Origin: Burkholderiales bacterium
GTDB lineage: Bacteria > Pseudomonadota > Gammaproteobacteria > Burkholderiales > SG8-41
Assembly: GCA_035649495.1 (NCBI GenBank)
Contig: DASRJL010000211.1
Location: 7,713-71,712, forward strand
Length of the DNA stretch: 64,000 nt
Direction of reading: 5' to 3'
Part shown: positions 10,978-63,496 of the stretch, piece by piece
Position numbering within the stretch: position 1 is the stretch's first letter
How the letters are laid out: each line of letters begins with the position of its first letter
Program-made: the position numbers and the translations under genes
Notes under the pieces: model-generated
What the model saw: the letters and a program-made list of their open reading frames with translations, nothing else
The model's database searches: none
What the model was told of the DNA's origin: nothing

Positions 10978-15626
<4,649 letters not shown>

Positions 15627-15798
15627 CGTGACCTCGAGTGAATCTCGTGATAACCCAACGGGTTGGCGCAAGAGTTGCTGCGGAGCAACAAACACCTGAC
15701 CCGCCGAGGGGAGCTTGGAAGTCTACCGGCTTATGCCTGACGCATCAACCGGTTGGAGGCAGAAGCAAGCACTAGCTAACCTGCGATGCCGGGATTCC

Positions 15799-20795: not shown

Positions 20796-20810
20796 AGCAC
20801 TACCCTCCTG

Positions 20811-21350: not shown

Positions 21351-21997
21351 TTCTTACCGCCCTTCTTGGCGGCCGCGGCGGCCTTGCGCTGAGACGCGAT
21401 CTCTTCCTCGTCCAGGTAACGGAAGGTCTTGGCAGTGGCATCCATCACCAGGCCGGGGTCCTTGCCGGCCCCCGTCGATAGCGCGATGTCGTTCAAGGTG
21501 ACGATGCGCGAGAGCTTGCCGATATCGCTCGCGAACGCGCCCAGGTCGTGATAGTTGCCGGTCACCTTGATCGTGATCGGCAGCTCGGCGTAGAAATCGC
21601 GCTGTATCTCGCCCGAGGCGGGCCTGAACAGCTCGAACTGGAGACCCCGCCCCAGTCCCGCCTGGTTGATGTCGGTCAGGAGCGCGTCCATCTCCGACTT
21701 GCCGGGAAGCTGCTTCAGGAGCGCGCCGAACTGCTTCTCGATGTCCTGGAGCTGCTTGCGGTAGGCCGGCAGGTCGATCGCCTGCTTCTTCTTGTCGAGG
21801 AAGGTCGTGCGCAGCTGCTCTTCCTTCGCCTCCTCGCCCTTGATCTTGTCGTACTGGTCCTGCCAGTCGAAGTACCATCCCGCCGTGACGATCAACGCCA
21901 GCACCACGACCAGGACACTCAGCCTGACGACGATCGGCGCGGAGCCGATCCGCTTCGGATCCAGGTAGCGCTTGAGGTCTTCGGATGTCATCGCCAT
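21347..21997 (-). CDS. pilO: type IV pilus inner-membrane alignment protein PilO
   Basis: 216 aa with a single TM helix and coiled-coil region. Position and size fit PilO; 4-nt overlap with pilP. Confidence 0.88.
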   Translation of the reverse strand: MAMTSEDLKRYLDPKRIGSAPIVVRLSVLVVVLALIVTAGWYFDWQDQYDKIKGEEAKEEQLRTTFLDKKKQAIDLPAYRKQLQDIEKQFGALLKQLPGKSEMDALLTDINQAGLGRGLQFELFRPASGEIQRDFYAELPITIKVTGNYHDLGAFASDIGKLSRIVTLNDIALSTGAGKDPGLVMDATAKTFRYLDEEEIASQRKAAAAAKKGGKK

Positions 21998-22003
21998 GGC
22001 GCG

Positions 22004-22609
22004 CTACCCCTTGACTTCCGGTTTCGGGGCCGGCTTTCCGCCCGCCTTCTTCGCGTCGGCCTCGGGCTGCTGGCGGGTGATGTTGATGTTCATGGTGAAC
22101 TCGTTCAGGCGCTGGTTGCCGACCGGCGTCGCCTTGATCTCGACCAGTCCGGGACTCTCCAGGTTGGGCGAGGACTCGAGGTTGCGCATCAGCGTGGAAA
22201 CACGCGCCTGCGACTGCGTGAAGCCGGTTATCGACACCTTCTGGCCGGTCTGCTTGATGCCCTTCAGGTAGACGCCGTCGGGCAGCTGCCGCACCAGCTG
22301 GTCGAGCAGGTGCACGACCTCCGAGCGGTTCGCCTGCAGCGTTTCCACCACGTTCTTGCGGGCGAGCAGCGCCGCGGTCTGCTCCTTGACCTTGTTGATC
22401 TCCTCGATCTGCTTGTCGACCTTGGCGATCTCCTCGGTCAGGTAGGCATTGCGGCTCTGCTGCTCCTCGAACTGCTGGACGAGGGTGTAGTGCACGAATC
22501 CCACGATGGCGGCGCCGATGGCCACGAAGATCCCGAATGCGATGAAAAATTGCTGCTGCTGCAGCTTGCGCCGGATCTCGCGGTGGGGGAGAAGGTTGAT
22601 GCGCATCAT
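22004..22609 (-). CDS. pilN: type IV pilus alignment protein PilN
   Basis: Begins MMRINLLPHREIRR, the conserved PilN N-terminal INLLP motif that binds PilM, followed by a TM helix. Confidence 0.9.
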   Translation of the reverse strand: MMRINLLPHREIRRKLQQQQFFIAFGIFVAIGAAIVGFVHYTLVQQFEEQQSRNAYLTEEIAKVDKQIEEINKVKEQTAALLARKNVVETLQANRSEVVHLLDQLVRQLPDGVYLKGIKQTGQKVSITGFTQSQARVSTLMRNLESSPNLESPGLVEIKATPVGNQRLNEFTMNINITRQQPEADAKKAGGKPAPKPEVKG

Positions 22610-23712
22610 GGATCGAATCTCCGCATCGCCAGGCCGCAGGCCACCATCAGCGACGGCGCATCCTGCGTCAGGTTCTTGGGTCGGATCTTGGAAGACACCG
22701 CCATGTTGGTGAAGGGGTTCGCGACCACCGTGTTCACCTGCGTGCGCTTGTTGACCGACTCATCGACGCCCGGCAGCGCCGCGCAGCCGCCGGAGAGCAC
22801 CAGGTGATTGACCTGGTTGAACTGGGTAGACGTGAAGAAGAACTGCAGGGCGCGCGCCACCTCCAGCCCCAGCATGTCCATGAACGGATGCAGCACCTCG
22901 GACTCGTAGTTCTCGGGCAGCCCGCCGGCCCGCTTCGCCGCTTCCGCCTCTTCGGGAGACAGCCCGAAGCGGTTCTGGATCTCCAGGGTGAGCTGGTTGC
23001 CGCCGAAGGGCTGCTCGCGCATGTAGATCGACTGGTCGTTGCGCAGCACGTTCACCGCCATGACCGTCGCGCCGATGTCGATCATGGCGATGTTCTGGTC
23101 CTTGCCCTTCTCGGGAAACTGGTCCTCGATCAGCTCGAAGGCGGTCTGCGCCGCGAACACGTCGACGTCCATGACCGTCGTCTTCAGGCCCGCCTGCTCC
23201 GCGGCCGCCACGCGGTCCTCGATCTTCTCCTTGCGCGAGGCCGCGATCAGGACCTCCACGTCGTCCGGGCTGTTGGGGGCCGGGCCCAGCACCTGGAAGT
23301 CGAGATTCACCTCGTCGAGGGCGAACGGAATATACTGGTTGGCCTCGGTCGCGACGGCGAGCTCAAGGTCTTCCTCGCGCTGGCCGGCGGGCACCAGTAT
23401 CCGCTTGCTGATGACCGCCGCGTTGGGTAGCGCAAGCGCGAGGTTCTTGACGTTGCTGCCGAGGCGCTTGTGCGCGCGCTTGAGCGCATCGCTGACGGCG
23501 TCGATATTGTTGATGTTGCCTTCCACTACGGAGTCCTTGGGCAACGGCTCGACCGCATAGCGCTCAACGCGATAAATGCCCTTGCCTGCCTCCATGATTT
23601 CCACCATCTTGATCGCGGACGAACTGATGTCCGTACCGATCAAAGGCGGCATCTTGGCCTTGAACAGGCGCTCCAGCGCGTCGAAATTAATGTTAAATTT
23701 CCCTTTGGCCAT
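22606..23712 (-). CDS. pilM: type IV pilus assembly ATPase-like protein PilM
   Basis: 368 aa actin/FtsA-like fold. First gene of pilMNOPQ, divergent from ponA as in Pseudomonas. Confidence 0.92.
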   Translation of the reverse strand: MAKGKFNINFDALERLFKAKMPPLIGTDISSSAIKMVEIMEAGKGIYRVERYAVEPLPKDSVVEGNINNIDAVSDALKRAHKRLGSNVKNLALALPNAAVISKRILVPAGQREEDLELAVATEANQYIPFALDEVNLDFQVLGPAPNSPDDVEVLIAASRKEKIEDRVAAAEQAGLKTTVMDVDVFAAQTAFELIEDQFPEKGKDQNIAMIDIGATVMAVNVLRNDQSIYMREQPFGGNQLTLEIQNRFGLSPEEAEAAKRAGGLPENYESEVLHPFMDMLGLEVARALQFFFTSTQFNQVNHLVLSGGCAALPGVDESVNKRTQVNTVVANPFTNMAVSSKIRPKNLTQDAPSLMVACGLAMRRFDP

Positions 23713-32631: not shown

Positions 32632-33594
32632 CTACTCGATCTTGGCGCCCGACTGCTTCACGACGTCTTTCATCCTGTTGAACTCGGCCTTCAGGTGCCG
32701 GGTGAACTCCTCGGGCGTCTTGTAGGCGGGATCGAGCACCTGCGCCGAGAGCTTCGAGGCGACCTCGGGATCTTCCATCGCTTTCTTGATCTCGGCGCTC
32801 AAGCGGTCGATGATCGGCTTGGGCGTGCCCGCCGGAGTAAACGCGCCAAACCAAGATGTGAATTCGTAGCCCTTCACGGTTTCCGCGATCGTCGGGATGT
32901 TGGGAAACTGGGTGGTGCGCTTGTCCGAAGACACAGCGATGGGCCGCAGGCGTCCCGACTGGATGTGGGGATAAACCTCTGCTATTACCGTGAGCATTGC
33001 CTGCACCTCGCCGCCCACCAGCGCAACGACTGCGGGGGCGCCGCCCTTGAACGGGACATGGGTCATGTTGATTCCGGCCATGTTGGCGAAAACGCTCGTG
33101 GCAAGATGCTGGAAGGCGCCCATGCCGGCCGTGCAGTACAGGATCTGGCCGGGACGCGCTTTCGCCAGCGCGATGAACTCCTTCGTCGTCTTCACCGGCA
33201 GCGAAGGATGCACGGCGAGCATGCCCACTATTCGCGTCAACATCGCTATCCCGTCGAAGTCCTTCAGCTCGTAGGGCACCTTCTGGTAGAGGTGAAAGTT
33301 GTTGAGCATCGTCTGCGAATACACCATGAGCGTATAGCCGTCGGGGGGGCTCTTCGCCGCGATCGCGCCCCCGATCATCCCGGAGGCGCCGGCCCGGTTG
33401 TCGATCAGGAACTGCTGGTTCATCTGCTCGCCCACTTTCTGAAATATGATCCGCGACACGATATCGGTCCCGCCACCCGCGGGAAACACAACGATGACGC
33501 GCACCGGTTTCGTCGGGTATGCCTGCGACCATGCCGTGCCGCAGGCGAACACGATGAGACTCACGAATGCGCCCAGCAACCGAATCGTACTCAT
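32632..33594 (-). CDS. Bug-family (TctC-like) tripartite tricarboxylate transporter substrate-binding protein
   Basis: 320 aa with signal peptide and the YP.KP.R.IV.F.AGG..D motif characteristic of Bug proteins. No adjacent tctA/tctB. Confidence 0.88.
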   Translation of the reverse strand: MSTIRLLGAFVSLIVFACGTAWSQAYPTKPVRVIVVFPAGGGTDIVSRIIFQKVGEQMNQQFLIDNRAGASGMIGGAIAAKSPPDGYTLMVYSQTMLNNFHLYQKVPYELKDFDGIAMLTRIVGMLAVHPSLPVKTTKEFIALAKARPGQILYCTAGMGAFQHLATSVFANMAGINMTHVPFKGGAPAVVALVGGEVQAMLTVIAEVYPHIQSGRLRPIAVSSDKRTTQFPNIPTIAETVKGYEFTSWFGAFTPAGTPKPIIDRLSAEIKKAMEDPEVASKLSAQVLDPAYKTPEEFTRHLKAEFNRMKDVVKQSGAKIE

Positions 33595-50034: not shown

Positions 50035-51012
50035 GTGAACAAGAGACATCGGGCATCGCTCTTCGCGCTGGCGGTCCTAGCCTGCCACCTGCCTGTACCG
50101 GCCTGGGCGCAGGGCTACCCCGTGAAGCCCGTCCGCTACGTCATCCCCTTCCCCGCCGGAGGCTCGCCCGACCTCATTGCGCGCCTCATCACCGAGCGCT
50201 TCAGCCGGATGTGGGGCCAGCAGGTGCTCGTGGACAATCGACCGGGCGCAGGCGGGACGGTGGGCGCCGCGTTCGCGGCGAAGTCGCCGCCCGACGGGTA
50301 CACGCTGTTTCAATGCAACATCGCGTCCAGCGCGATCGCGGAGTCGCTCTACGCGAGGATGCCGTACGACCAGCAGCGCGACTTCGCGCCGCTCTCCCGC
50401 ATCGGCACGACCGCGAGCGTCCTGGTCGTGCACCCGTCGCTGCCGGCGCGCTCGGTGAAGGAGTTCATCGCCTACGCCAAGGCCCACCCGGGCAAGCTGT
50501 CCTACGGCACGTCGGCTGCCGGCACCTCGCCCCAGCTCTCGATGGAGTTGCTCAAGCTGAGCGCGAAGATCGACGTCGTGCACATCGCATACAAGGGCGC
50601 GCCGCAGGCGCTGTCCGATGTGATCGGGGGCCAGATTCCCGTCAGCGTGCAGACGGCGCCGGGGGCGCTGGCGGCGGTCCAGGCAGGGCGCGTGCGCGCG
50701 CTCGCGGTAACGAGCCTGAAACGCCTGCCGCAGCTGCCCGATGTTCCGACCATGGACGAGAGCGGGCTTCCCGGCTTCGAAGTGACCTCGTGGTACGGCT
50801 TGTGCGCGCCGGCCGGCACACCCGTGGCTATCCTCGACAAGGTTCACGCCGATCTTACCGCGGTCCTGCGCGTGCCCGAGATCCAGCAGCGCCTGAGGGA
50901 CATCGTGGTCGAAGCCGCGCCCATGAGCCGGGAAGAATTCGCGCAGTTCATCCGCGCTGAAATCGCGCGCTGGGCGCGGGTCATCAAGGCTGCCGGTATC
51001 CCGCAGCAGTAG
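50035..51012 (+). CDS. Bug-family (TctC-like) substrate-binding protein
   Basis: 325 aa with signal peptide and the YPVKPVRYVIPFPAGGSPD Bug signature. Confidence 0.88.
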   Translation: MNKRHRASLFALAVLACHLPVPAWAQGYPVKPVRYVIPFPAGGSPDLIARLITERFSRMWGQQVLVDNRPGAGGTVGAAFAAKSPPDGYTLFQCNIASSAIAESLYARMPYDQQRDFAPLSRIGTTASVLVVHPSLPARSVKEFIAYAKAHPGKLSYGTSAAGTSPQLSMELLKLSAKIDVVHIAYKGAPQALSDVIGGQIPVSVQTAPGALAAVQAGRVRALAVTSLKRLPQLPDVPTMDESGLPGFEVTSWYGLCAPAGTPVAILDKVHADLTAVLRVPEIQQRLRDIVVEAAPMSREEFAQFIRAEIARWARVIKAAGIPQQ

Positions 51013-51054: not shown

Positions 51055-52020
51055 TTACTGGACGCGGAGCCCCGCCTTTTTGATCACCGCACCCAGGTGC
51101 TGGGTTTCCGACTTGATCGTCGCCGCGAACTCCTGGGGCTTTGTCCCGACGCTCTCGACACCGGCGTTGAAGAACCGCTGCTTGACCTCCGGGGTATTCA
51201 GCACCGCCACCGCTTCGCGGTTCAGGAGAGCGAGGATGGCGGGTGGCGTGCGGGCCGGCGCCCAGAAACCATAGATCGCTTCGGCGGCATAACCCGGCAC
51301 GCCGGATGCGGCGACGGTCGGCAACCCGGGCGCCAGGGGGGAGGGCTCGGCGCTCGTAACCGCGAGCCCCTTCAGCCTGCCCGACTTGACGTGCCCGGAC
51401 ACCGAACCGGTGGTCGCAAACATCACTTTCACCTGGCCGGCCAGGACGTCGTTCAGCGCCGGCCCCCCGCCTTTGTAGCCGATACGCACGAGCTTGACGC
51501 CGGCCAGCGCATTGAACAATTCAGCGGCGAGATGATTCGCCGCCCCGACCGGCCCGGAGGCATAGTTGATCTCCCCGGGCGCGGCCTTCGCGCGCTCGAT
51601 CAACTCCTTGACCGTATTGGCCTGCAGAGAGGGATGCACCACCAGGATGTTGGGGGAGCGCGACAGCAGCGAGATCGGCGCGAGCTCCTTTTCGTGCTCG
51701 TACGGCACCGGACCCAGGAGGGTCGACACCCATACCGTGTTGTTGTGGACCAGCAGGGTATAGCCGTCGGGCGTGCCCTTGGCGACCGTCTGCTCGGCGA
51801 TGCTGGTACCGCCGCGATTGTCCACCACCACCTGCTGCTTCAGCCGCTCGGTGAGCCCGTGCGCGAGCATGCGCGCGGTGAAATCGATGCCCCCGCCGAT
51901 GGCCGCGGTGACGAAGCGTATCGGACGGTTCGGGTAGTCCTGCCCGTCCGCCGCTACGGCGACAGCGCTCGCACCGGCGAGGAGCAGACAAACGATCGGT
52001 TTAAACCGGTCACTGGTCAC
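51055..52020 (-). CDS. Bug-family (TctC-like) substrate-binding protein
   Basis: 321 aa with signal peptide and a YPNRPIRFV motif. GTG start lies inside the heptamer array. Only distantly similar to its convergent neighbour. Confidence 0.85.
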   Translation of the reverse strand: MTSDRFKPIVCLLLAGASAVAVAADGQDYPNRPIRFVTAAIGGGIDFTARMLAHGLTERLKQQVVVDNRGGTSIAEQTVAKGTPDGYTLLVHNNTVWVSTLLGPVPYEHEKELAPISLLSRSPNILVVHPSLQANTVKELIERAKAAPGEINYASGPVGAANHLAAELFNALAGVKLVRIGYKGGGPALNDVLAGQVKVMFATTGSVSGHVKSGRLKGLAVTSAEPSPLAPGLPTVAASGVPGYAAEAIYGFWAPARTPPAILALLNREAVAVLNTPEVKQRFFNAGVESVGTKPQEFAATIKSETQHLGAVIKKAGLRVQ

Positions 52021-52148: not shown

Positions 52149-53225
52149 TCAGGCTGCGGCGAATGCCGTGTGGTGCGGCCCCTTCGATACCGGCGCGAGG
52201 CCGGTGAGCACTTCGCGCCACTCTTCGCCGCCGTCGTCGCTGCACCAGACTTCCCCGGTCGCGGTGGCCCCGAGGAGCGAGAACGACTCGCCCCAGTCTT
52301 CCAGGCACATCGCCTCGAAGGCTGTCCGGAGCGGCGCATCCGGAAATCCCTTGCGTACTACCTGCCACGTCCGCCCGCCGTCGTCGCTCCGGGAGATGCG
52401 GGAGCCGGCGTAATGCTCCTTGTACCAGGCCCCGGGCCGTTTCTTGGCAGAAGCCACGAACAGGAGCTCCGGCCGCCGCGGATGGTGCACGAGGAGATCC
52501 GGATAGCCGCCGATCTCGTGCTGCGGATCCGTCCACTGCTCCCACGTCTTTCCCCCATCGGCGGTCGCGTACATGCCGACCCCCGTCGTGACCAGCATCT
52601 CGTCGGGCTTCTGCGGGTTGATCACGGTGCGATGCACGTCATCGTCCGTTCCCGGGAGGAACTGGAACGTGCGCCCGGCATCGCGGCTCCTCAGCAGCCC
52701 GCCCTGCTCGACCCCGACGAACATCGTGTTCGGATCGTGCGGATGGAATTCGATGTGCTTGGTATGGGCGACGTGCGGCGGCCCCGGGAAATTCCACTTG
52801 GATGTATCACCCGAGCGCAACCCCGGCAGCTCCGTCCAGGTGCGTCCCAGGTCGTCGCTGCAGAAGAGATGCGCGGGCTCCGTGCCGGCGTAAAGGCGCG
52901 GGCCTGCCGCCAGCCGCGTGCACGCGAGGCTGTAGACATCCTGCTCGCTCAACCCTTGATCGCGCCGCTCCCACGTGCGGCCGCCGTCCACGCTGGCGTA
53001 GATCGAGCCGTGGTTCACCCCGGCGAAGACCGTGCCGCTTTCCGGTTCGATGAGGACGGCGTGGATGTGCTTGCCGGCCAGCGTCCGGTCCGCGATATGC
53101 CATCCCGCGCCGTCGGCATCGCGCTCCATGTTCACCACGCCGTTGATGGTGCCGACCAGTACCTGCCGGGAGCGTGCCGGTGAGCGGTAAATCGTGGGTC
53201 CGCCATGCGAAAGGGTTATCGCCAT
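52149..53225 (-). CDS. BNR/Asp-box repeat beta-propeller protein (sialidase-like fold), no signal peptide
   Basis: 358 aa from ATG 53225, with SD GAAAGAGGAGA upstream. Six Asp-box motifs: SVDGGRTW, SDDLGRTW, SRDAGRTF, TADGGKTW, SDDGGRTW, SDDGGEEW. The track ORF to 54674 is an out-of-frame read-through of the MFS gene. Confidence 0.8.
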   Translation of the reverse strand: MAITLSHGGPTIYRSPARSRQVLVGTINGVVNMERDADGAGWHIADRTLAGKHIHAVLIEPESGTVFAGVNHGSIYASVDGGRTWERRDQGLSEQDVYSLACTRLAAGPRLYAGTEPAHLFCSDDLGRTWTELPGLRSGDTSKWNFPGPPHVAHTKHIEFHPHDPNTMFVGVEQGGLLRSRDAGRTFQFLPGTDDDVHRTVINPQKPDEMLVTTGVGMYATADGGKTWEQWTDPQHEIGGYPDLLVHHPRRPELLFVASAKKRPGAWYKEHYAGSRISRSDDGGRTWQVVRKGFPDAPLRTAFEAMCLEDWGESFSLLGATATGEVWCSDDGGEEWREVLTGLAPVSKGPHHTAFAAA

Positions 53226-53305
53226 GTTGTCTCCTCTTTCAAGGCTGTCGGGTCGCGAAGACGCGGCCTTCGGGCGAGACACATTGCGCCGCACCGCCGC
53301 TCGCG

Positions 53306-54607
53306 TCAAGGGTGGGTAGTTGAAGGCAGCACTCGCGGCTGACCCGTCGATCCCAGGTATGCACGGCGCGCGCGGTAGAGCAGAAACGCGACGATGCCGA
53401 CGTTGAGCAGGTTCCATGCCGTGCCGTTCAGGAACGCTGCGCGATAGGAGCCGGTCAGGTCGAACACAGCGCCGCACATCCAGCCGCCCAACGCCATGCC
53501 GAAAAGGCTCGCCATCAGGACGGTGCCGACGCGCGCGCCAGCCTCCCGCGGCGTGAAGTATTCGCGCACGATCAACGCGTAGGCGGGGACGATGCCGCCC
53601 TGAAACAATCCGAACATCGCGGCGACCACGTAGAGCGATTCCACGCCGTTGGCGAAGAGGAACATCAGCAAAGCGACGCCCTGCAGTATCGAGCCGAGCA
53701 TCAGGGTCTTGAGCCCGCCGATGTAATCCGAAATCCACCCCGATACGAGGCGGCTGACGATACCCGCGCCCAGCATGACTGCCAGCATCTCGGCCCCGCG
53801 CGCCGCACCGAAACCCAGATCGGTGCAATAGGCGACGATGTGCACCTGCGGCATCGACATCGCCACGCAGCACGACACGCCGGCCACGCAGAGGAGGCCT
53901 TGCAGCGCGGCAGGCGACAGCCCGAGCGGGCGCGACGGATCCGGCCCTGATCCCCGTTCGTGAGCGAGCGCCGCGCCGGACGCCGCCGACGCAGGGAGCG
54001 GCGCCGCTGCGGGCGGCCGCCGGCGGAGCACCAGCGCGAGCGGCAGCATCGCTAACAGGCAGAACACGCCCATGCCGATGTAGGTCTGGCGCCAGCCCGC
54101 GCTCTCGACGAAGTGCTGGACGACGGGCGCCCACACGGCGCCCGCGAGGTAGTTGCCGCTCATGCAGATCGCCACGGCGATGCCGCGGCGGCGGGTGAAC
54201 CACTGCGACGTGTCGGCCGCGAGCGGCGCGAAAGTCGCACCGCTTCCCAATAATCCCATCAACACGCCTTGCGCCAGGCTGAACTGCCAGAGGCTGCCGG
54301 ACGAACCGGCCGCAACAAAGCCCATGCTGAGAAACACCGAGCCGAGAATGACCGGAACCATCACGCCGAAGCGGTCCGACAGGCGGCCCATCAATATTCC
54401 GCCGAAACCGAAGCCGATCATCGAGAGCGTGTAGGGCAACGATGCATCCGCGCGCGTGACCCCGAACTCGGCCTGTATGCGCGGCAGCACGACGCTGATG
54501 GTGTAGATGCCCGAGCCACCGACGGTCATCAGGGCGAGCGACGCGCAGAGCCGCGCCCATGCGTAGGGGGATTCGATATCCCGGGATGTGGATGCCGGTG
54601 TCTGCAT
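53306..54607 (-). CDS. MFS transporter
   Basis: About 433 aa with 12 predicted hydrophobic helices and the MFS loop motif GRLSDRFG. Start at 54607 (MQTPAST) or 54649. Confidence 0.85.
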   Translation of the reverse strand: MQTPASTSRDIESPYAWARLCASLALMTVGGSGIYTISVVLPRIQAEFGVTRADASLPYTLSMIGFGFGGILMGRLSDRFGVMVPVILGSVFLSMGFVAAGSSGSLWQFSLAQGVLMGLLGSGATFAPLAADTSQWFTRRRGIAVAICMSGNYLAGAVWAPVVQHFVESAGWRQTYIGMGVFCLLAMLPLALVLRRRPPAAAPLPASAASGAALAHERGSGPDPSRPLGLSPAALQGLLCVAGVSCCVAMSMPQVHIVAYCTDLGFGAARGAEMLAVMLGAGIVSRLVSGWISDYIGGLKTLMLGSILQGVALLMFLFANGVESLYVVAAMFGLFQGGIVPAYALIVREYFTPREAGARVGTVLMASLFGMALGGWMCGAVFDLTGSYRAAFLNGTAWNLLNVGIVAFLLYRARRAYLGSTGQPRVLPSTTHP

Positions 54608-54746
54608 GATTCTCAATGATAGGCGAAAGCGCGACGCCGGCGTCCGCACAGTCCCGTGAGGGACGAGCGTCCATCTGTACCTCTCGCTGGAAACCAGGAG
54701 GTCGAAGACGCGTGGGCTGCGGAGGTGGAGCGGCGGCTCGAGGTGC

Positions 54747-56666
54747 TTAACGAATAACAGGCCTCAGCCAGCTCTTCAACGCCCCTATCCGCGAGCGGAT
54801 CCCGTCCGCCAGCGTCTCGGTGATGCTTGCCGTGGCGACCTTGTGCTGCTGCACGAGCTGCGGCGATTGCTTGAAGGACTGGTAGCGTTCCAACGCGGAC
54901 TGCACGTGCTGGGTGAGGAGCTTCATGTTCACGGGCTTGTTGAGGAAGCGGAAGATCTGCGCCTGGTTGATGAGCTCGATCACGAGCTCCGAGTCGGAAG
55001 CTTCAGTCAGCACGATCGCGAGAATTTCCGGGTGGTCCTGCTTCAGGAGCTTGAAGGTGGCGATCGCCTCGTCGCGCGCACTCTCGATGTCGGCCACGAT
55101 GAGCGCGATCTCCTGGTCCGCGAGGATCTTGAATGCTTCGTCGAGATCACCTGCATGCAGCACGGGGCAGGTTGCCGCAAACAGGTGGTGCACCGAGCGG
55201 AAGATGTCGTCCTTCGGGTCGATGACCATGGTCCCGGCGCTCATCTTGCCGGTCGTCGCCACGGGGGCCGCGGCTGCTTCCTGCAGCTCCATTGCGATGG
55301 CGACCGCGTCGCCGACGATCTTCTGGATCTCCTGGTTGTTCCAGGGCTTGGACACAAAGCGGAACACCTCGCCTTCGTTGATGGAGCCCACGATGGAGGC
55401 GAGGTCGGAGTAGCCGGTCAGCAGGATGCGCACCGTGTTGGGCGCGACCTCTTTCAGCTGGCGCAGGACCTGCACGCCGGTCATCCCCGGCATGCGCTGG
55501 TCGCTCACGACGACGTGTACGCCGAACTTCTTGATGAAATCCAGTGCCTGCGCGCCATCGGTGGCCGTGAACACGTGGTAATTCGCCCGGAAGACGGACT
55601 TCAGCGCGGTCAATATCCGCTCCTCGTCGTCGATGAATACGATGCGCGGTTTCTTGCTGGTGTCCTCCGTCGGCGCCGGCGTCGGTTGCGGCGTGGCGTC
55701 CGGCGGCGGTACCGGGCGCATCGGCGGCGCTTCGAGCGGCAAGCCGGCCAGCAACCGCGCTGCCTGGAGCAGGTTGGTGTCTATCCTCTGGGTCGTCACT
55801 TCCGACAGCGCGGCTGGCTCGGGCTCGGGCATCGTGTTGCGTATGCTCCCTTCGATGCCTTTCAGGAAAGCCTCGGAAAACTCGCTCGCGCTCTGGAAGC
55901 GCTCCGACTTTTCTTTGGCGAGCGACTTGTGCACGGCCCAGTCGAGCTGCGCCGAAATCTGGGGATTGATCATCGACGGGTTTGCCGGCCGGTCGTTCAG
56001 CACCGCGCGCATGATCTCGGGATTGCTCCCGGAAAAAGGCCGCTTCCCGACCAGGAGCTCGTAGGCGATGATGCCCACCGAGTAGATGTCGCTGCACGCG
56101 TCGATCTCGGTGCCGAGAAACTGCTCCGGCGCCATGTAGCCGGGCGAGCCCATGATCTCGCCCACCTGCGTAAGCGTCGAGGAATCGAGCCGCGCTATGC
56201 CGAAATCGCTGATCTTGATGCGCCCGTCGGCGTTTACCAGCAGGTTGGAAGGCTTGATGTCGCGGTGCACGACGCCCTGATCGTGCGCGTAGCCCAGCCC
56301 GTCGAGGAGCTGGCGGATCACTTCCCCGATCTCCTTCAGGGCGAAATGCGCCTGCTCCTGCATGTGCTGGAACAGCGACTTGCCGTTCACCAGCTCCATC
56401 ACGATGTAGGCGATGTCGGGATCCTCGCCGTAGTCGTAGATCGCGGCGATGCGCGGGTGGGTGAGCCTGCCGACTGCCTGCGCCTCGTGCCGGAAGCGCA
56501 TCAGCGCGTACTGGAGATTGATCGGGTCGAGCGTGCCCTTGTTGACGGTCTTGATCGCGACCTGGCGATGGATCGCGGGGTCGAACGCGCGGTAGACCGT
56601 GCCCATGCCGCCCTGACCGAGCACGCCCTCGACGCGGTACTTGCCGATGTATTCGGGCAGGGGCAT
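54747..56666 (-). CDS. Hanks-type Ser/Thr protein kinase fused to two C-terminal receiver (REC) domains
   Basis: aa 10-267 carry GQGGMGTVY, AIK, HRDIKPSN, DFG and SPGYMAPE. A Pro-rich linker follows. REC1 is about aa 340-458 (DD346-347, D389, K440 in SKPW). REC2 is about aa 479-595 (D526, K577 in NKPV). Confidence 0.85.
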   Translation of the reverse strand: MPLPEYIGKYRVEGVLGQGGMGTVYRAFDPAIHRQVAIKTVNKGTLDPINLQYALMRFRHEAQAVGRLTHPRIAAIYDYGEDPDIAYIVMELVNGKSLFQHMQEQAHFALKEIGEVIRQLLDGLGYAHDQGVVHRDIKPSNLLVNADGRIKISDFGIARLDSSTLTQVGEIMGSPGYMAPEQFLGTEIDACSDIYSVGIIAYELLVGKRPFSGSNPEIMRAVLNDRPANPSMINPQISAQLDWAVHKSLAKEKSERFQSASEFSEAFLKGIEGSIRNTMPEPEPAALSEVTTQRIDTNLLQAARLLAGLPLEAPPMRPVPPPDATPQPTPAPTEDTSKKPRIVFIDDEERILTALKSVFRANYHVFTATDGAQALDFIKKFGVHVVVSDQRMPGMTGVQVLRQLKEVAPNTVRILLTGYSDLASIVGSINEGEVFRFVSKPWNNQEIQKIVGDAVAIAMELQEAAAAPVATTGKMSAGTMVIDPKDDIFRSVHHLFAATCPVLHAGDLDEAFKILADQEIALIVADIESARDEAIATFKLLKQDHPEILAIVLTEASDSELVIELINQAQIFRFLNKPVNMKLLTQHVQSALERYQSFKQSPQLVQQHKVATASITETLADGIRSRIGALKSWLRPVIR

Positions 56667-56680
56667 GGCGGGAGGCGGCG

Positions 56681-58537
56681 CTAGGCCGCCAGCTCCTCGC
56701 GCGGCGGCGGATTGAGCGGGAGCACTACGCGGAACTTCGTGCCTATGCCCACGGCCGAGTCCACGGTGATGCTGCCCCCGTGCTGCGCGACGATCTTACG
56801 GGAAATCGAGAGCCCGAGGCCCGTGCCCTTGCCGGAATCCCGGGTGGTGAACAGCGGATCGAAAATCCGGGGCAGCACGTCCGGGGGTATGCCCTTGCCG
56901 TTGTCCTCGATCTCCACGGCCACGTGCGCCTCGTCCTCGCGGCGCGTGGTGAGCCTGATCGTACCCCGCTCCGATTCGATCGCCTGCGCCGCGTTGTTGA
57001 TGAGGCTCAGGAGCACCTGGTTGATCTGGGACGGGGAGCACGTGATGGTCGGGATGTCCCCGTAATCCTCCTGCACCGTGTGCCGCTTTACCTCGTGGCG
57101 GGCGATGCGCAGCGTGCTCTGCACGCCTTCGTTCAGGTTGAAGTCCGCCATCCTGCCGCGGTCGAGCCGCCCGAAGTTTCTGAGGCTGACCACGATTTCC
57201 GAGATCTGGTCGACGCCGTAGAGCCCGTCCTGCGCAAGCCTTTGCAGCTCGCCCATGACCTGGTGCTGCTCCAGCTCCGCGACGTGTGCCTGTACCACCG
57301 CCAGCTGCCGGGCGAGCGCGTCGGGCGTCTCCCTGCCCCCCTTCAACAGCGTGATGAGCTTCTCCACCTCGGCGAGCGCCAGCGAAAGACCGGGAAGCCT
57401 GCCCCGCGACGTGGAGAGGCTCCCCTTGACGTAGGCGAGCGGTGTCGCGATCTCGTGCGCGAGGCCCGCGACCATCTGTCCCAGCTCGGACATCCGCTCC
57501 GTCAGCACCAATTGCGCCTCTGACTCCTGCAACCGGCCCGCGGTTTCGGTCAACTCGCGCGTGCGCCCCGCCAGGCGCCGCTCCAGCGCTTCGTTCGCGA
57601 CGTCGAGCCGCCGGTAGCTCGCGATGAGCCGCGCGGCAAGATAGGCAACGAGCACCAGCACCGCGGCTGAGAAGTAGACGAGATAAACCCGGTAGCGTTC
57701 CCGCCAGGTGAGCACGGAATCGCGTTCCAGCGCGTAGGCGCCGGCGACGCTCGTCACCCGCGGGCCGGCGGTGATGAACGCGAGCCGGTCATGAAGCTTT
57801 TCCTCGATCGGCTTGGCGCCGAGCAGCTGTTGCACGTTGGCGTCGAGCCGCGCGAGCCCGTCGCGCACCGCGGCGGGCAGCTGGGCCGCCGCCTCCACCA
57901 GGTCCGCAGCGACCGTTTCCACGCTCTTGCGCTGGGCCTCGCCGGGCGCGTAATAGTATCTCTGCGCTTCCGCCAGCAGGAGCGTCACCGCGTTTTCGGC
58001 CGCGACCAGCCGGTCGCGGTCCCTGAAGTCCTGCCACGACCCGCGCACCAGCCCCGCGATCTCGACGTCCGCGGCGAGCACCCGCGTCAGGGCCTGCTTC
58101 GTCGCGGCGTTGGCGTTGCGGAACTTCTCGATGAGATCGGCTTTCTGGAGGAACGCGGCGGTCAGGTCGGTCATGCTGCGCTTGAGTACGGGGCTGCCGG
58201 TCTCATCCGCCGCGGCCGTCAACGCTTTGCGCAGGCGGTTCACCTGGGGGGTGTAGTCCACCGGGGCCGGCGGCGCGAAGTCGTTGCGGGTGCGCAGTAT
58301 CTCCACGTCCCAGCGCGCGTCGATCTCCTTCAGCTCGCGCATCCAGCCGAGCACCTCGCCCTGGCGCATGGTATCGGCTCCCTGCGTCCTGGCGTAGAGG
58401 ATGAGGAGGATCGCGGCGAGTGCGATGGCGGCCGCGGCGGCGAGCGTGACCGCGAGGCTGCGCGAGCCCCTCAGGCGCGCGAGGAGCCGCGACGTCACCG
58501 CCTTGGCGCGGGCGACCATGGCCGGCTCGTTCACCAA
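56681..58537 (-). CDS. sensor histidine kinase with large all-helical periplasmic domain
   Basis: Two TM helices flank an Ala/Leu/Arg-rich region of about 230 aa. Then a coiled coil, H-box AHEIATPL, N-box LINNAAQAI, and G-boxes DNGKGI and GTGLGLS. No REC or HPt domain. Start may be TTG 58537, GTG 58534 or ATG 58519. Confidence 0.88.
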   Translation of the reverse strand: MVNEPAMVARAKAVTSRLLARLRGSRSLAVTLAAAAAIALAAILLILYARTQGADTMRQGEVLGWMRELKEIDARWDVEILRTRNDFAPPAPVDYTPQVNRLRKALTAAADETGSPVLKRSMTDLTAAFLQKADLIEKFRNANAATKQALTRVLAADVEIAGLVRGSWQDFRDRDRLVAAENAVTLLLAEAQRYYYAPGEAQRKSVETVAADLVEAAAQLPAAVRDGLARLDANVQQLLGAKPIEEKLHDRLAFITAGPRVTSVAGAYALERDSVLTWRERYRVYLVYFSAAVLVLVAYLAARLIASYRRLDVANEALERRLAGRTRELTETAGRLQESEAQLVLTERMSELGQMVAGLAHEIATPLAYVKGSLSTSRGRLPGLSLALAEVEKLITLLKGGRETPDALARQLAVVQAHVAELEQHQVMGELQRLAQDGLYGVDQISEIVVSLRNFGRLDRGRMADFNLNEGVQSTLRIARHEVKRHTVQEDYGDIPTITCSPSQINQVLLSLINNAAQAIESERGTIRLTTRREDEAHVAVEIEDNGKGIPPDVLPRIFDPLFTTRDSGKGTGLGLSISRKIVAQHGGSITVDSAVGIGTKFRVVLPLNPPPREELAA

Positions 58538-59234
58538 TTATTCACCCAGGTAGGCCCGTCTGACGTCGGCGTTGGCAAGCAGGCGCGGCGCCGTATCGGC
58601 GAGCGTGATGGTCCCGCTCTCCATGACGTAGCCGCGATCGCAGGTCTCGAGCGCGAGCTTCGCGTTCTGTTCCACCAGCAGCAAGGTCACACCCTCCCGC
58701 GCAACGACGCGGATCGTTTCGAAAATCTTCTGCACCATGAGCGGCGCGAGTCCCATGCTCGGTTCGTCCAACAGCAGCAACTGCGGCCGGCTCATCAGCG
58801 CGCGCCCGATCGCGAGCATCTGCTGCTCACCGCCCGACAGCGTGCCCGCGCGCTGGCGGCGGCGTTCGGCGAGCCGGGGAAATACCGCATAGATGCGGTC
58901 GAAATCGGCGGCGACCTGAGCGCGATCGCCACGGCTGTACGCGCCCATGTGGAGGTTCTCCTCTACCGTCAGAAGCCCGAACACGCCCCGGCCTTCGGGC
59001 ACCAGCGCCAGCCCCCGGCGCACCAGCTCGAAAGCCGGGCGCCCGGTGATCTCCGTGCCATTATAGTGGATGCGGCCCGCAACTGGTTTAAGAAGCCCCA
59101 CTAAGGTCTTCAAAGTGGTGGTTTTTCCGGCTCCGTTTGTCCCGATAAGTGTCACAAGTTCACCATTTTTCACGTCGAGATCTATGCCCTTCACGGCCTT
59201 GATCCCGCCATACGAAACGGTAAGCCCCCTGACC

Positions 59235-59242
<8 letters not shown>
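58538..59242 (-). CDS. livF: branched-chain amino acid ABC transporter ATP-binding protein LivF
   Basis: 234 aa with Walker A GTNGAGKTT, signature LSGGEQQML and Walker B LLLLDEP. Confidence 0.9.
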
Positions 59243-60019
<777 letters not shown>

Positions 60020-60023
<4 letters not shown>

Positions 60024-61120
60024 CCGCCCTTTCCGGCCGCGGTGTCGGGCGAGGTCGACAGCTCCCGGCGGCGCGTCGCGGACGGCCACAGCCCCGAGGG
60101 CCGCAGCAGCATGACCAGGATCAGCGCCAACCCGAATACGAGGAGCCGCAGATCCGTCGGGTCCCGCAGCACCTTGCCGAAGAGAAGCTGCTGGAGCGGC
60201 CCCAGGTAGCGCAGCGCTTCGGGCAGCACGACCAGCAGTACCGCGCCGAGCACCACGCCGGGGATGTGACCCATGCCGCCCAGGACCACCATGCACAGGA
60301 TCATGATCGATTCGATCAGGGTAAAGCTCTCGGGGCTCACGAAACCCTGGAACCCCGCGAACAGGCCCCCCGAAACGCCGCCGAAGCTCGCGCCCATGGC
60401 GAACGCGAGGAGCTTCACGTTTCGCGTGTTGATTCCCATCGCGGCCGCCGCCACTTCGTCCTCGCGTATCGCCACCCAGGCCCGGCCAATCCGCGAATTC
60501 TCCAGGCGTATCGAGACGAACACGACCGCGAGCGTCAGCGCGAGGAACAGGTAGTAATAGTTGTATACCGGCGGAAAGCCGAGACCCAGCGCGGTGTGCG
60601 TCTGCGCGAGCGAGAAGCTCCCCAGCCGGATGGGATCGATCAGGTTGATGCCCTGCGGTCCATTGGTGATATTGACCGGCGCGTTCAGGTTCACCAGGAA
60701 GATGCGGACGATCTCCCCGAAGCCGAGCGTGACGATCGCGAGGTAGTCCCCGCGCAGCCGCAGGGTGGGCGCGCCGAGCAGCACGCCGAACACGCAGGCG
60801 ACGCCCGCGCCCAGCGGCAGCAGCAGCCAGAACGGCAGGTGCAGCCCGAACTGGGGCGAGGCGAGGAGGGCGTAGAAGTACGCCCCGACCGCGAAGAAGG
60901 CGACGTAGCCCAGATCGAGCAGGCCGGCGTAGCCCACCACGATGTTCAGGCCCAGCGCGAGCATGATGTAGAGCAGGACGAACGCCGCGATACGTACCCA
61001 CGCCCGGCCGAACGCCCAGTCGGCGAAGAACGGCAGCGCCAGCAGCAGGACCGCCAGCGCGGCGAACGCGATCCACGCGACCCTCGGGTCGCGGCGGAGT
61101 TTTCCCCACTCACCAATCAC
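60020..61120 (-). CDS. livM: branched-chain amino acid ABC transporter permease LivM
   Basis: 366 aa polytopic membrane protein of the LivM type. GTG start lies inside a heptamer array. Confidence 0.88.
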
Positions 61121-61135
61121 GAATCACCAATCACG
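61107..61135 (-). repeat. heptanucleotide tandem repeat (GTGATTS-type) at livH-livM junction
   Basis: The minus strand reads CGTGATT GGTGATT CGTGATT GGTGAGT. Occupies the 18-nt livH-livM spacer and the livM start. Confidence 0.8.
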
Positions 61136-61138
61136 CCG

Positions 61139-62068
61139 TTACGAGCGTTCGGCGACTCGTTCGCCGAGGAGGCCTGACGGGCGCAACGTCAATACCAGGA
61201 CCAGCACCAGGAAAGCGAACACGTCCTGGTAGTGGCTGCCGAAAAAACCGCCCGTCAGGTCGCCGATGTAGCCGGCGCCCATGCTCTCGATGATGCCCAG
61301 CAGCACGCCGCCCAGCACGGCGCCGGTGAGGTTGCCGATGCCGCCCAGCACGGCGGCGGTAAACGCCTTCAGCCCGAGCATGAAGCCCATGAAGTAGTGC
61401 GCGACGCCGTAGTAGGCGCTCACCATCAACCCGGCCACGGCGGCCAGCGCGGAGCCGATCACGAATGTGAGCGAGATGACCGTGTTGATGTTCACCCCCA
61501 TCAGGCCCGCCACCTCGGGATTCTGCGAAGTGGCGCGCATCGCGCGGCCGAGCCGCGTGCGATGCACCAGCACGAGCAGCCCCGCCATGATCGCGCACGA
61601 CAGGAGGACGATGAAGATCTGCAGGTCGCTCACGGTCGCCCCGGCGAAATGGCGCGGCGTGGCGGGGAGCAGTGCGGGAAACGAATGATAGTTGCGGCCC
61701 CAGATGATCATCGCCAGGTTCTGCAGCACGATCGACACGCCGATTGCCGTGATGAGCGGGGCGAGGCGCGGCGCGGCGCGCAGCGGCCGGTAGGCGACGC
61801 GCTCTATCGTATAGCCGAGAAGCATGCACACCGGCATGGCCACCAGCAGGCCCAGGGCCGCGATCGCAGGTCCGGGGAGCGCGACGCCGCTCCCGACCAG
61901 GAGCTGTATCGCAGAAAGCGCCACCAGCGCGCCGATCATGACCACCTCGCCGTGCGCGAAGTTGATGAGCCCCAGGATGCCGTAGACCATCGTGTAGCCG
62001 AGCGCCACGAGCGCATAGATCGCGCCCAGGACGAGCCCGTTGATCAGTTGCTGGATGAAGATGTCCAT
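61139..62068 (-). CDS. livH: branched-chain amino acid ABC transporter permease LivH
   Basis: Starts MDIFIQQLINGLVLGAIYALVALGYTMVYG, the canonical LivH N-terminus. Start trimmed from 62086. Confidence 0.9.
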   Translation of the reverse strand: MDIFIQQLINGLVLGAIYALVALGYTMVYGILGLINFAHGEVVMIGALVALSAIQLLVGSGVALPGPAIAALGLLVAMPVCMLLGYTIERVAYRPLRAAPRLAPLITAIGVSIVLQNLAMIIWGRNYHSFPALLPATPRHFAGATVSDLQIFIVLLSCAIMAGLLVLVHRTRLGRAMRATSQNPEVAGLMGVNINTVISLTFVIGSALAAVAGLMVSAYYGVAHYFMGFMLGLKAFTAAVLGGIGNLTGAVLGGVLLGIIESMGAGYIGDLTGGFFGSHYQDVFAFLVLVLVLTLRPSGLLGERVAERS

Positions 62069-62069
62069 C

Positions 62070-62099
62070 AAAAGCGAAAACGGCACCCGAGGGTGCCGT
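62070..62099 (-). terminator. intrinsic terminator/attenuator between livK-like gene and livH
   Basis: ACGGCACCC / GGGTGCCGT 9-bp stem with a 2-nt loop. On the minus strand it is followed by TTTTCGCTTTT. Confidence 0.7.
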
Positions 62100-62129
62100 C
62101 CGCTAATCCAGGCAGGATCATCGACGCTG

Positions 62130-63425
62130 CTATTTCTTCTCCGCGGGCGGGGCAGCAGGCGCGGGTGCGGCGGCCGGCTTGTCCGCTGTCGGGGCCGCGG
62201 GGGCCGCCGCAGGCGCGGCGGCGGCGGCGGCTGCTTCGCCTCCCACCGTCGCGAGGGATTCCCACTTTCCGCTCTTCACGACGTACAGCGTGATCGGCCC
62301 GTTCCTGAGGTCGCCTTTCTCGTCGAAGCCTATGGGTCCCGTTACGCCCTGCCGGCTCGTCTTCGCGAGTTCCGGCAGGTATTTCGCCGGATCGGTGGAA
62401 TTGGCCTTCTGCATCGCCTCGATGAGGGTCATCGTCGCATCGTAGGCGTACGGCGCATAAATCTGGATCTGGCCGTATTTGCCGGTGAACTTGTCGCTGA
62501 ATCCCTTGCTGCCCGGCATTTTCTCCAGCGGCAGCCCCGGCGAGGAGGCGATCACGCCCTCCGCCGCGGGTCCGGCGAGCTTGATGAACTCCTGGCTCTG
62601 CGCGCCGTCGCCGCCGAGGAACTTCGCCTTGACCGCGAGCGACTGCAGTTGCGCCGCCATCGGGCCTGCCTGGGCGTCCATGCCGCCGTAGAAGACGAGG
62701 TCGGGCTTCTTGCCCTTGATCCCGGTGAGAATGGCGCGGAAGTCGGTCGCCTTGTCGTTGGTGTACTCGCGCCCCACGATGGTCGCGCCGCCGGCCTTGG
62801 CCGCCTTTTCGAACTCATCGGCGAGGCCCTGGCCGTAGGCCGTGCGGTCGTCGATGATGGCGATCCGCTTGGCGCTCATCGGCCCGACCGCGTACTCGCC
62901 CAGCACCTTGCCCTGCTGGGCGTCGTTCGCCATCGTGCGGAATATCGACTTGTAGCCCTGCGCGGTGACCGCGACGGCGGTGGCGGACGGCGAGATCTGC
63001 GGAATGCCGGCATCGCTGTAGATCTTCGAGGCCGGGATGGTCGTGCCCGAGTTGAGATGTCCGATCACGCCGGCCACCTTGGCGTCGACGAGCTTCTGCG
63101 CCACCACCGTGCCGGTTTTCGGATCGGCCTGGTCGTCCTCGCTCACCAGCTCGAACTTCACCTTCGCCCCGCCGATCACGAGGCCTTTCGCATTCATCTC
63201 CTCGATCGCGAGCCGGGCGCCGTTGTCGTTGTCCTTGCCCAGGTGCGCCTGCGGACCGGTGAGCGGCGAAACCTGTCCGATCTTCACCACCACTTCGGGT
63301 GGCGGCTTGGGGGCTTCGACTTTTGCAGCGGGCGGCGGTGGCGGCGGCGGTTCCTGTCCGCAAGCAGCGATGAAAACGGCAACCGCAAGACCCAAACCGG
63401 CGTTCAGCAACCGTCTGCGGACCAT
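62130..63425 (-). CDS. branched-chain amino acid ABC transporter substrate-binding lipoprotein (LivK/LivJ-like) with Pro- and Ala/Pro-rich tails
   Basis: 431 aa with lipobox IAAC, a poly-Pro linker, a type I periplasmic binding fold, and a 37-aa C-terminal Ala/Pro-rich tail. Confidence 0.88.
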   Translation of the reverse strand: MVRRRLLNAGLGLAVAVFIAACGQEPPPPPPPAAKVEAPKPPPEVVVKIGQVSPLTGPQAHLGKDNDNGARLAIEEMNAKGLVIGGAKVKFELVSEDDQADPKTGTVVAQKLVDAKVAGVIGHLNSGTTIPASKIYSDAGIPQISPSATAVAVTAQGYKSIFRTMANDAQQGKVLGEYAVGPMSAKRIAIIDDRTAYGQGLADEFEKAAKAGGATIVGREYTNDKATDFRAILTGIKGKKPDLVFYGGMDAQAGPMAAQLQSLAVKAKFLGGDGAQSQEFIKLAGPAAEGVIASSPGLPLEKMPGSKGFSDKFTGKYGQIQIYAPYAYDATMTLIEAMQKANSTDPAKYLPELAKTSRQGVTGPIGFDEKGDLRNGPITLYVVKSGKWESLATVGGEAAAAAAAPAAAPAAPTADKPAAAPAPAAPPAEKK

Positions 63426-63467: not shown

Positions 63468-63496
63468 ATTATCCGCAGCGCTTAGGACGATGTCAA
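63468..63496 (-). promoter_or_regulatory. near-consensus sigma70 promoter for the liv cluster
   Basis: The minus strand reads TTGACA, a 17-nt spacer, then GATAAT. The -10 element is about 43 nt upstream of the ATG at 63425, and a GGGGGG SD-like run precedes the start. Confidence 0.55.

Follow-up and report, generated by a model that had tools for sequence, protein, structure and literature searches.

A Conserved Histidine Kinase and Tandem-Receiver Ser/Thr Kinase Gene Pair in Burkholderiales as a Putative Two-Component System with Protein Kinase Output

Within a stretch of 64,000 nucleotides from a soil Burkholderiales bacterium (contig DASRJL010000211.1, positions 7,713 to 71,712; hereafter the window), two adjacent genes on the minus strand encode a transmembrane sensor histidine kinase (HK) together with a cytoplasmic protein in which a Hanks-type Ser/Thr kinase domain precedes two receiver domains, REC1 and REC2 (hereafter the kinase-REC-REC protein). 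Judging from their sequences, we are moderately confident that the two genes constitute a conserved two-component system with a response regulator whose output is a Ser/Thr protein kinase. A homologous HK is encoded directly upstream of the kinase-REC-REC gene in 14/14 independent loci with readable upstream sequence, and because the adjacency recurs in every one of them, the arrangement is far beyond chance.

54747..56666, minus strand: kinase-REC-REC gene, ATG start, 639 aa, cytoplasmic (open reading frame, translation, Pfam)
56681..58537, minus strand: HK gene, 618 aa from TTG, 612 aa from the ATG at 58519

Both open reading frames (ORFs) are present at these positions. Exactly 14 nt lie between the HK stop codon (TAG) and the kinase-REC-REC ATG, and directly after the TAA of the preceding gene, livF, there are three alternative HK starts: TTG at once, GTG at +3, and ATG at +18. 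A preliminary description of this DNA is borne out in these respects: it had placed the HK start 0-18 nt after the livF stop and, 14 nt upstream of the kinase, a 618-aa classical HK without a receiver of its own, which agrees with the ORF, the sequence boxes, and the lack of a receiver match in Pfam. It had also read the protein at 54747..56666 as a complete N-terminal Hanks kinase, a Pro-rich linker, and two receiver-like domains; all the motifs it quoted were found, and the domain search returned Pkinase and two Response_reg matches for this protein and HATPase_c, HisKA, and the periplasmic family DAHL for the HK.

The 14 loci (L001-L008, L084, L085, L086/L087, L088, L089, and L090; 35-80% identity) cover both close and distant relatives. 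Eight of them (L001-L008) are Burkholderiales or betaproteobacterial metagenome-assembled genome (MAG) loci from the GTDB species set with a full-length or contig-truncated homolog at 62-80% identity; all eight show the order livF, DAHL-HK, kinase-REC-REC, with the whole livK-H-M-G-F string on contigs of sufficient length. Searching the 50%-identity representatives exhaustively brought in at least about fifteen more clusters, 35-56% identical, that share this architecture over their full length, and contigs were retrieved for six distant lineages (L084, L085, L086/L087, L088, L089, and L090), in which the spacing of HK and kinase genes ranges from an overlap of 4-11 nt to a 28-nt gap. The SEKMSSLGQMVAG-AHEINTPLAYVK H-box is kept in the partner HKs wherever the sequence is readable. 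The adjacency of HK and kinase genes, which the preliminary description had expected of related genomes, was thus seen in every independent locus. Over 120 full-length clusters of this large family reach at least 63% identity, and other representatives, as distant as 35%, still largely keep the catalytic residues of the kinase and the quintet of REC1 (see below). The database annotation of its members reads only "protein kinase," "response regulator," or "RpfG family."

Some of these assemblies show irregularities of their own. Locus L007 (CAZQJF010000423.1), which carries livG-livF-HK-kinase at 80-88% identity to the window, is labeled uncultured Streptomycetaceae, probably through a binning error. 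The HK of L002 (8187..9978) is split, as is the kinase-REC-REC gene of L090 (5221..7143; a 205-aa Pkinase piece and a 380-aa REC-REC piece); both assemblies are long-read-derived, and a frameshift error is most likely rather than real gene fission.

The domains and shorter elements of the kinase-REC-REC protein are as follows:

55896..56639, minus strand: Hanks-type Ser/Thr kinase domain, residues 10-257 (Pfam Pkinase, E 2.6e-56)
55653..55856, minus strand: Pro-rich linker, residues 271-338 (21% Pro)
55749..55793, minus strand: conserved linker segment, residues 292-306, a short helix in the otherwise disordered linker
55314..55643, minus strand: REC1, residues 342-451, the best Response_reg stretch
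54882..55235, minus strand: REC2, residues about 478-595, the second Response_reg stretch, with a weak VpsR-like match at 491-587 (Pfam)
54750..54881, minus strand: C-terminal helical tail, residues 596-639 (helices 581-607 and 617-628 in the AlphaFold2 (AF2) model)
54768..54770, minus strand: W633, invariant in 69 sequences

The kinase domain matches PF00069 (Pkinase) with 191.4 bits against a cut-off of 31.7, its closest solved counterparts are the kinase domains of mycobacterial PknB and PknA (E about 1e-51), and the motifs GQGGMGTVY, AIK, HRDIKPSN, DFG, and SPGYMAPE are all present. Residue conservation was measured over the best 120 homologs (63-100% identity, ~620-670 aa, same architecture). 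Invariant in 120/120 are the Gly-rich loop (G17/G19/G22), K39, E61, H134-R135-D136, N141, D154-F155-G156, P180-E181, and R256, as is T166 in the activation loop, where position 164 is T in 106/120. Among these, K39 is the VAIK Lys, E61 the Glu of alphaC, N141 the catalytic Asn, and R256 the Arg of subdomain XI. Mean identity is 78% for the kinase domain, 75% for REC1, and 64% for REC2. That the kinase is the most conserved part and its catalytic residues are invariant argues for selection on catalysis in the window's clade; by its residues the domain is catalytically complete, in keeping with the completeness that the preliminary description had ascribed to it.

No transmembrane (TM) segment was detected by hydropathy in the kinase-REC-REC protein. 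The linker has pLDDT below 50 in the full-length AF2 model, save for a helix at about 297-306; in 69 sequences its residues T292, Q293, D296, L299, and A303 do not vary. Both the linker helix (292-306) and the tail with W633 may be docking or autoinhibitory elements. The NCBIfam PASTA-kinase model NF033483 reaches a score of 292, short of its cut-off of 450, and aligns to the kinase domain alone, so the protein does not class as a PASTA kinase.

Response_reg matches the 639-aa protein in two stretches (Pfam, E 7.2e-31). REC1 contains DD346-347, VVVSDQRMPG with D389, and SKPW with K440, and its quintet of D346, D347, D389, T417, and K440 is invariant in 120/120; it has the sequence of a canonical receiver with a predicted phosphoacceptor at D389. 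REC2 contains IVADIES with D526 and NKPV with K577, and D526 (117/120), T554 (115/120), and K577 (117/120) are highly conserved. The positions of its acidic pair, by contrast, vary among the homologs (D/E/G/N/A at 483 and A/P/S/R/E/T at 484), so that the Mg2+-binding pair, and with it the full receiver quintet, is lost. The two receivers are therefore not equivalent, and REC2, whose fold is CheY-like in the AF2 model of the REC-REC part (pLDDT 82.5), should be regarded as an atypical or pseudo-receiver, probably with an adaptor function. Of the two receivers seen by the preliminary description, then, REC1 stands in full, and REC2 retains the D526 and K577 it had named but not the acidic pair.

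The sequence type of REC1 (VSDQRMP...LTGYSD...KPW) also occurs in HupR and in receivers joined to HD-domain or cyclase enzymes, and its closest structures are HupR (2jk1, E 2.7e-23) and the receivers of HD-domain proteins and of an adenylate cyclase. The best match in the PDB that spans both receivers is PleD (Foldseek with the REC-REC model; about 280-299 columns). The NCBIfam model of the NosR family (REC-REC-HD-GYP, NF053512) reaches 211.6 bits against a cut-off of 400, through the receiver pair only, and no HD or HD-GYP domain match was found in the 639-aa protein, which accordingly falls outside the RpfG/NosR family.

A search with the REC-REC half returned mostly same-family gene fragments on short contigs and did not bring out the range of alternative outputs; relatives are indicated only by the NosR-family match and by a stand-alone REC-REC protein in a Lysobacterales MAG (L030; JANMUE010000337.1, 6766..10146). 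At this locus a related HK, whose catalytic core is 47% identical and which has a different, Cache-like periplasmic sensor plus a HAMP-like region, is followed by a 316-aa protein consisting of the two receivers, 55% identical to the window REC1. As no kinase is present in this pair, the pairing of HK and REC-REC predates the kinase fusion or exists independently of it, which supports a cognate relationship between HK and REC-REC and suggests, from the sequences, that a tandem-receiver regulator existed first and then gained the kinase.

Outside the family, the nearest kinases come from Competibacteraceae, Rubrivivax, and Burkholderiaceae MAGs and are 45-48% identical in the kinase domain. Those of loci L010, L011, L015, L019, L027, and L029 (Competibacteraceae/Rubrivivax/Burkholderiales; match at about 10001-11400) are soluble proteins of ~470 aa with two C-terminal repeats, bearing a conserved "LxxxLGPxAxxLVxxA" motif, in place of receivers. 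When receivers were looked for in these proteins, none were found; the kinase-receiver fusion is therefore specific to the kinase-REC-REC family.

The HK is resolved into the following parts:

57689..58366, minus strand: periplasmic all-helical sensor domain DAHL, residues 58-283 (PF19443, E 1.5e-17)
57404..57484, minus strand: H-box region of the dimerization and histidine phosphotransfer domain, residues 352-378 (HisKA match; H361 in AHEIATPL)
56711..57034, minus strand: catalytic domain HATPase_c, residues 502-609 (PF02518, E 1.1e-28)

The DAHL match (64.5 bits against a cut-off of 38) covers 226 residues and identifies the all-helical periplasmic domain of roughly 230 aa noted in the preliminary description; hydrophobic segments at 25-54 (TM1) and 282-309 (TM2) flank it by hydropathy. 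HATPase_c reaches 100.3 bits (cut-off 26.4), and the N, G1, F, and G2 boxes are present (N514, DNGKG545, FDPLFTT559, and GKGTGL569). With an H-box, catalytic boxes, and two TM segments around the sensor, the protein is a class I transmembrane sensor kinase. Its catalytic core gives sub-threshold matches to the EspC (166 bits) and EspA (133 bits) models, whose cut-offs are 1200-1400.

Pfam found no HPt or receiver match in the HK and none in the neighboring genes. Lacking both, the system is a simple two-component pair with His-to-Asp transfer and not a multistep phosphorelay, which amends the "His-Asp phosphorelay" of the preliminary description. No other receiver and no DNA-binding response regulator, the absence of which had been remarked on before, occurs within +/-10 kb of the pair, which makes the kinase-REC-REC protein the HK's only candidate partner.

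Upstream, the pair is contiguous with genes for a liv-type ABC transporter:

58538..59242, minus strand: livF (Pfam and gene calls)
59235..60023, minus strand: livG (Pfam and gene calls)
60020..61120, minus strand: livM (Pfam and gene calls)
61139..62086, minus strand: livH (Pfam and gene calls)
62130..63425, minus strand: livK-like solute-binding protein gene (Pfam and gene calls)
58538..63425, minus strand: the HAAT-family (liv-type) ABC transporter genes as a whole, co-directional and contiguous with the HK gene
62078..62101, minus strand: G+C-rich hairpin and T-run between livK and livH
63468..63496, minus strand: sigma-70-like promoter match upstream of the livK-like gene (TTGACA-17-GATAAT, 11/12)

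The gene calls, made on three metagenome contigs that encode an identical kinase protein, agree with the single co-directional string of livK-H-M-G-F, HK, and kinase proposed earlier, with the amendment that it lies on the minus strand. (The identical kinase-REC-REC protein, P0001, is found on 13 metagenome or MAG contigs.) No terminator-like site was found at the livF/HK or HK/kinase junctions, and the pair is, by this arrangement, probably co-transcribed with the HAAT importer in the window organism and close relatives. The promoter match is a candidate for the whole string and only suggestive, since one such match is expected by chance in the region (1 observed vs. 1.1 expected). A hairpin with a T-run after the binding-protein gene is an arrangement frequent in ABC operons.

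The liv proteins have the Liv families as their best NCBIfam matches, all below the equivalog cut-offs (bits/cut-off: LivK-like 237/477, LivH 245/379, LivM 306/366, LivG 273/362, LivF 281/441), and so do not class as LIV-I; they belong to the wider HAAT family (Pfam Peripla_BP_6, BPD_transp_2, ABC_tran, and BCA_ABC_TP_C). The order liv-HK-kinase is kept from 80% to 62% identity and appears again at 41% (L088), the only one of the distant loci in which liv genes flank the pair. Downstream of the pair the genes vary, and the MFS and BNR genes that follow it in the window are not conserved in other species, which rules them out as conserved candidate substrates. As the adjacency of HK and kinase holds in all loci and the liv linkage and downstream genes do not, the conserved unit is the HK and kinase-REC-REC pair, and liv linkage is a trait of the window's clade.

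Taking as observed which domains are present, that the active sites are intact, and that the two genes are strictly adjacent, we infer from sequence the phosphotransfer, the direction of control, the dimerization mechanism, the ligand, and the substrates in the following scheme. The DAHL domain would sense a periplasmic cue, upon which the HK would autophosphorylate on H361 and pass the phosphoryl group to D389 of REC1. REC2, with its degenerate metal-binding pocket, would act as an adaptor beside REC1, like the second receiver of PleD, and phosphorylated REC1 would alter the oligomerization or the conformation of the stem formed by REC1 and REC2. This would set the proximity of the PknB-like kinase domains and, in turn, their trans-autophosphorylation on T164/T166 and the phosphorylation of substrates. 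Sensing, autophosphorylation of H361, and transfer to D389 are proposed from knowledge of the families and the strict synteny, and stem rearrangement and kinase control by analogy with PleD and with the activation of PknB by dimerization. The cue may be the transported solute, possibly read when the LivK-like binding protein docks on the DAHL domain.

Several observations weigh against this scheme, some of them by favoring an alternative. The HisKA match, at 26.2 bits, is marginally under its cut-off of 26.9. The tandem topology is common to PleD and the modeled REC-REC of the window, but the superposition is poor (TMq 0.42-0.46; root mean square deviation 8-11 A), and PleD-like packing is not demonstrated; the full-length AF2 model folds the three domains without confident inter-domain geometry (pTM 0.50). 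No FHA-domain or PP2C gene and no second response regulator was found among the window genes scanned (all but the stretches at ~1.1-2.1, 9.3-11.0, 28.0-30.3, and 43.5-45.1 kb). For every member of the family, the functional statements are drawn from sequence and synteny.

A first group of such points concerns the input. The preliminary description had raised a possible tie of the pair, packed behind liv genes, to amino-acid availability. Such genes lie beside it in L001-L008 and L088; they are absent in L084, L086/L087, and L090, where the neighbors are unrelated, and the sub-cut-off scores of the liv proteins leave the transported substrate not established. It is quite conceivable, although it falls short of our own preference, that the liv adjacency is operon packing without signaling meaning, that the DAHL domain senses an unrelated periplasmic or membrane cue, and that amino acids play no role. 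Against this stand the livF stop that abuts the HK start, the retention of the liv-HK-kinase order over the identity range given above, and precedents in which a helical-bundle sensor relays the action of a binding protein, namely XylFII-LytS and GlnH-GlnX-PknG, the latter running from binding protein to helical-bundle membrane sensor to Ser/Thr kinase (PMC6069109; PMC9769921). A clade-specific link of the pair to amino-acid or solute availability is plausible. Its fullest version can be offered only tentatively: the LivK-like protein and the DAHL-HK would co-sense, REC1 would become phosphorylated, and the PknB-like kinase would be switched on or off, turning amino-acid or solute availability into phospho-Ser/Thr by a module widespread in uncultured soil Burkholderiales.

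A second point concerns the sign of control, which nothing in the sequence sets. The wiring could be the same with the opposite outcome, the unphosphorylated protein being the active kinase and phosphorylation of REC1 an off-switch, or the HK acting mainly as a phosphatase; HupR, the closest solved receiver, has an entry (2vui) entitled "inhibitory phospho-state." We regard this as unlikely, given that PleD, WspR, CheB, and most other receivers with enzymatic output are activated by phosphorylation.

A third concerns the kinase as output. In four distant members of the alignment A1 (P0128, P0145, P0164, and P0178) the kinase motifs are degenerate (HRD changed to HAD, HGE, or HGA; DFG to GFG or DLA; in P0128 also the VAIK Lys to Arg) and REC1-REC2 are kept, so that these are probably, by sequence, pseudokinase lineages, and catalysis is not essential in every lineage. 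Together with the stand-alone REC-REC protein of L030, with the tandem-receiver regulator DrdR, which acts by binding PilB and PilT (PMC13507683), and with WalR, CovR, and DosR, response regulators reportedly phosphorylated by Ser/Thr kinases (PMC6213207), this would fit REC-REC as the true effector through protein contacts, the kinase being an accessory input or scaffold that phosphorylates the receivers or the HK on Ser/Thr or just mediates dimerization, with downstream Ser/Thr targets not the main output. The invariant catalytic residues of 120 sequences in the window's clade, in which the kinase is conserved above both receivers, make this improbable there. We retain the reading of the kinase-REC-REC protein as a response regulator with kinase output.

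Two further genes lie downstream of the pair:

53306..54607, minus strand: MFS transporter gene (gene calls)
52149..53225, minus strand: BNR/sortilin-like protein gene (gene calls)

A gap of 139 nt separates the kinase-REC-REC gene from the MFS transporter gene. Two long ORFs of the region were rejected as genes on the basis of gene calls and Pfam: the 624-aa ORF at 59235..61109 (minus strand) is an over-extended livG frame and not a fused livM-livG, and the 841-aa ORF at 52149..54674 (minus strand) is an over-extended BNR frame and not a large BNR protein. Over-extended ORFs of this kind are typical of high-GC DNA, and livM and the MFS transporter lie in other frames.

The remaining window genes are housekeeping genes (argS, priA, hemE, gltB, aroKB, pilMNOPQ, mrcA, hemB, thiDE, ksgA-pdxA-surA-lptD, pepP, purH, purD, and hemF). 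A complete type IV pilus assembly operon, pilM-N-O-P-Q, lies beside aroK-aroB at 18684..23712 (minus strand), and the gene for the large subunit of glutamate synthase, gltB, is near it at 10977..15695 (minus strand); their presence places the signaling pair within a conserved housekeeping region rather than an island. The GC content of the window is flat (0.63-0.69), and given this and the housekeeping neighbors, an origin from a mobile element or island is unlikely. Three paralogous genes for TctC/Bug-family periplasmic receptors, at 32632..33594 (minus strand), 50035..51012 (plus strand), and 51055..52020 (minus strand), fit the expansion of this family in Burkholderiales.

Two-component systems and Hanks kinases are usually treated as parallel, and their known cross-talk consists of Ser/Thr kinases phosphorylating response regulators. 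In the pair described here they appear to be wired in series, such that the HK would control a Ser/Thr kinase through the receivers fused to it. Eukaryotes have a two-component link to a protein kinase in ETR1 and CTR1. Another is Ssk1, which provides two-component input to the kinase Ssk2 (PMC8510515). Enzymatic-output response regulators and two-component control of Ser/Thr kinases in eukaryotes are already known, and what the sequences point to is a module that is real, abundant, and conserved, with a testable mechanism, and not a new principle. The preliminary description knew of no characterized member of the architecture, and no characterized bacterial kinase-REC protein was found in the full-text literature searched, which did not cover the response-regulator censuses; those of Galperin reportedly list rare REC-protein-kinase fusions.

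Should phosphotransfer gate the kinase, the pair would be a compact and tractable model of how receivers govern a protein kinase. Response-regulator biology would then gain a further class of output, and an input signal of a bacterial Ser/Thr kinase would become known, filling a long-standing gap. The tight liv linkage in the window's clade provides a testable hypothesis for that signal, and synthetic biology could employ the module to convert His-Asp into Ser/Thr signaling.

Among bacterial systems, one close parallel in domain logic is Caulobacter PleD (REC-REC'-GGDEF), which has a tandem receiver stem with a canonical first and an adaptor second receiver and an enzymatic output that works through dimerization, features that the window protein would share; its degenerate REC2 fits this pattern. 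The window protein differs in that its output is an N-terminal Hanks kinase rather than GGDEF and is joined by a roughly 70-residue Pro-rich linker, in its low sequence identity to PleD (17-20%), and in the relative orientation of the receivers, which is not reproduced. The RpfG/NosR-type REC-REC-HD-GYP proteins and HupR resemble it in the REC1 sequence type, the NosR-family model match, and the best single-domain PDB matches, whereas the window protein is without an HD-GYP or DNA-binding domain and has a protein kinase as output. PknB and PknA provide the closest catalytic domain and share the TxT activation loop, whose autophosphorylation in that family follows dimerization; unlike them, the window kinase has no TM helix, PASTA domain, or other extracellular sensor. 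In Myxococcus, EspA/EspC and PktA5/PktB8 exemplify HKs and Hanks kinases that cooperate in a bacterial pathway, although there PktA5/PktB8 are separate membrane kinases without receivers and their coupling to EspA/EspC is genetic.

In layout and in possible input, the comparison extends to nutrient signaling. The preliminary description held that an output domain placed before the receivers inverts the usual layout; this is unusual, as claimed, yet not unprecedented, since fungal Rim15, which acts in nutrient signaling, also has its kinase N-terminal to a C-terminal receiver (PMC8510515). Rim15 differs in being a eukaryotic kinase of the AGC/Greatwall type; its single receiver is often a pseudo-receiver, with a role that is unstudied (PMC8510515), and it has no adjacent cognate HK. 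The GlnH-GlnX-PknG system of Actinobacteria likewise clusters a solute-binding protein, an all-helical periplasmic membrane protein, and a soluble Ser/Thr kinase, and conveys nutrient status to the cytoplasm; the periplasmic domain of GlnX is a tandem four-helix bundle (PMC6069109; PMC9769921). There GlnX has no HK module, PknG has no receiver, and coupling is by protein contact, whereas in the window the sensor is an HK, the kinase carries receivers, and the signal would pass by His-to-Asp phosphotransfer; only in the kinase fold are the components of the two systems homologous. If the tentative co-sensing of solute by the LivK-like protein and the DAHL-HK were true, the pair would represent, with His-to-Asp coupling, a counterpart both of GlnH-GlnX-PknG and of nutrient signaling by fungal Rim15.

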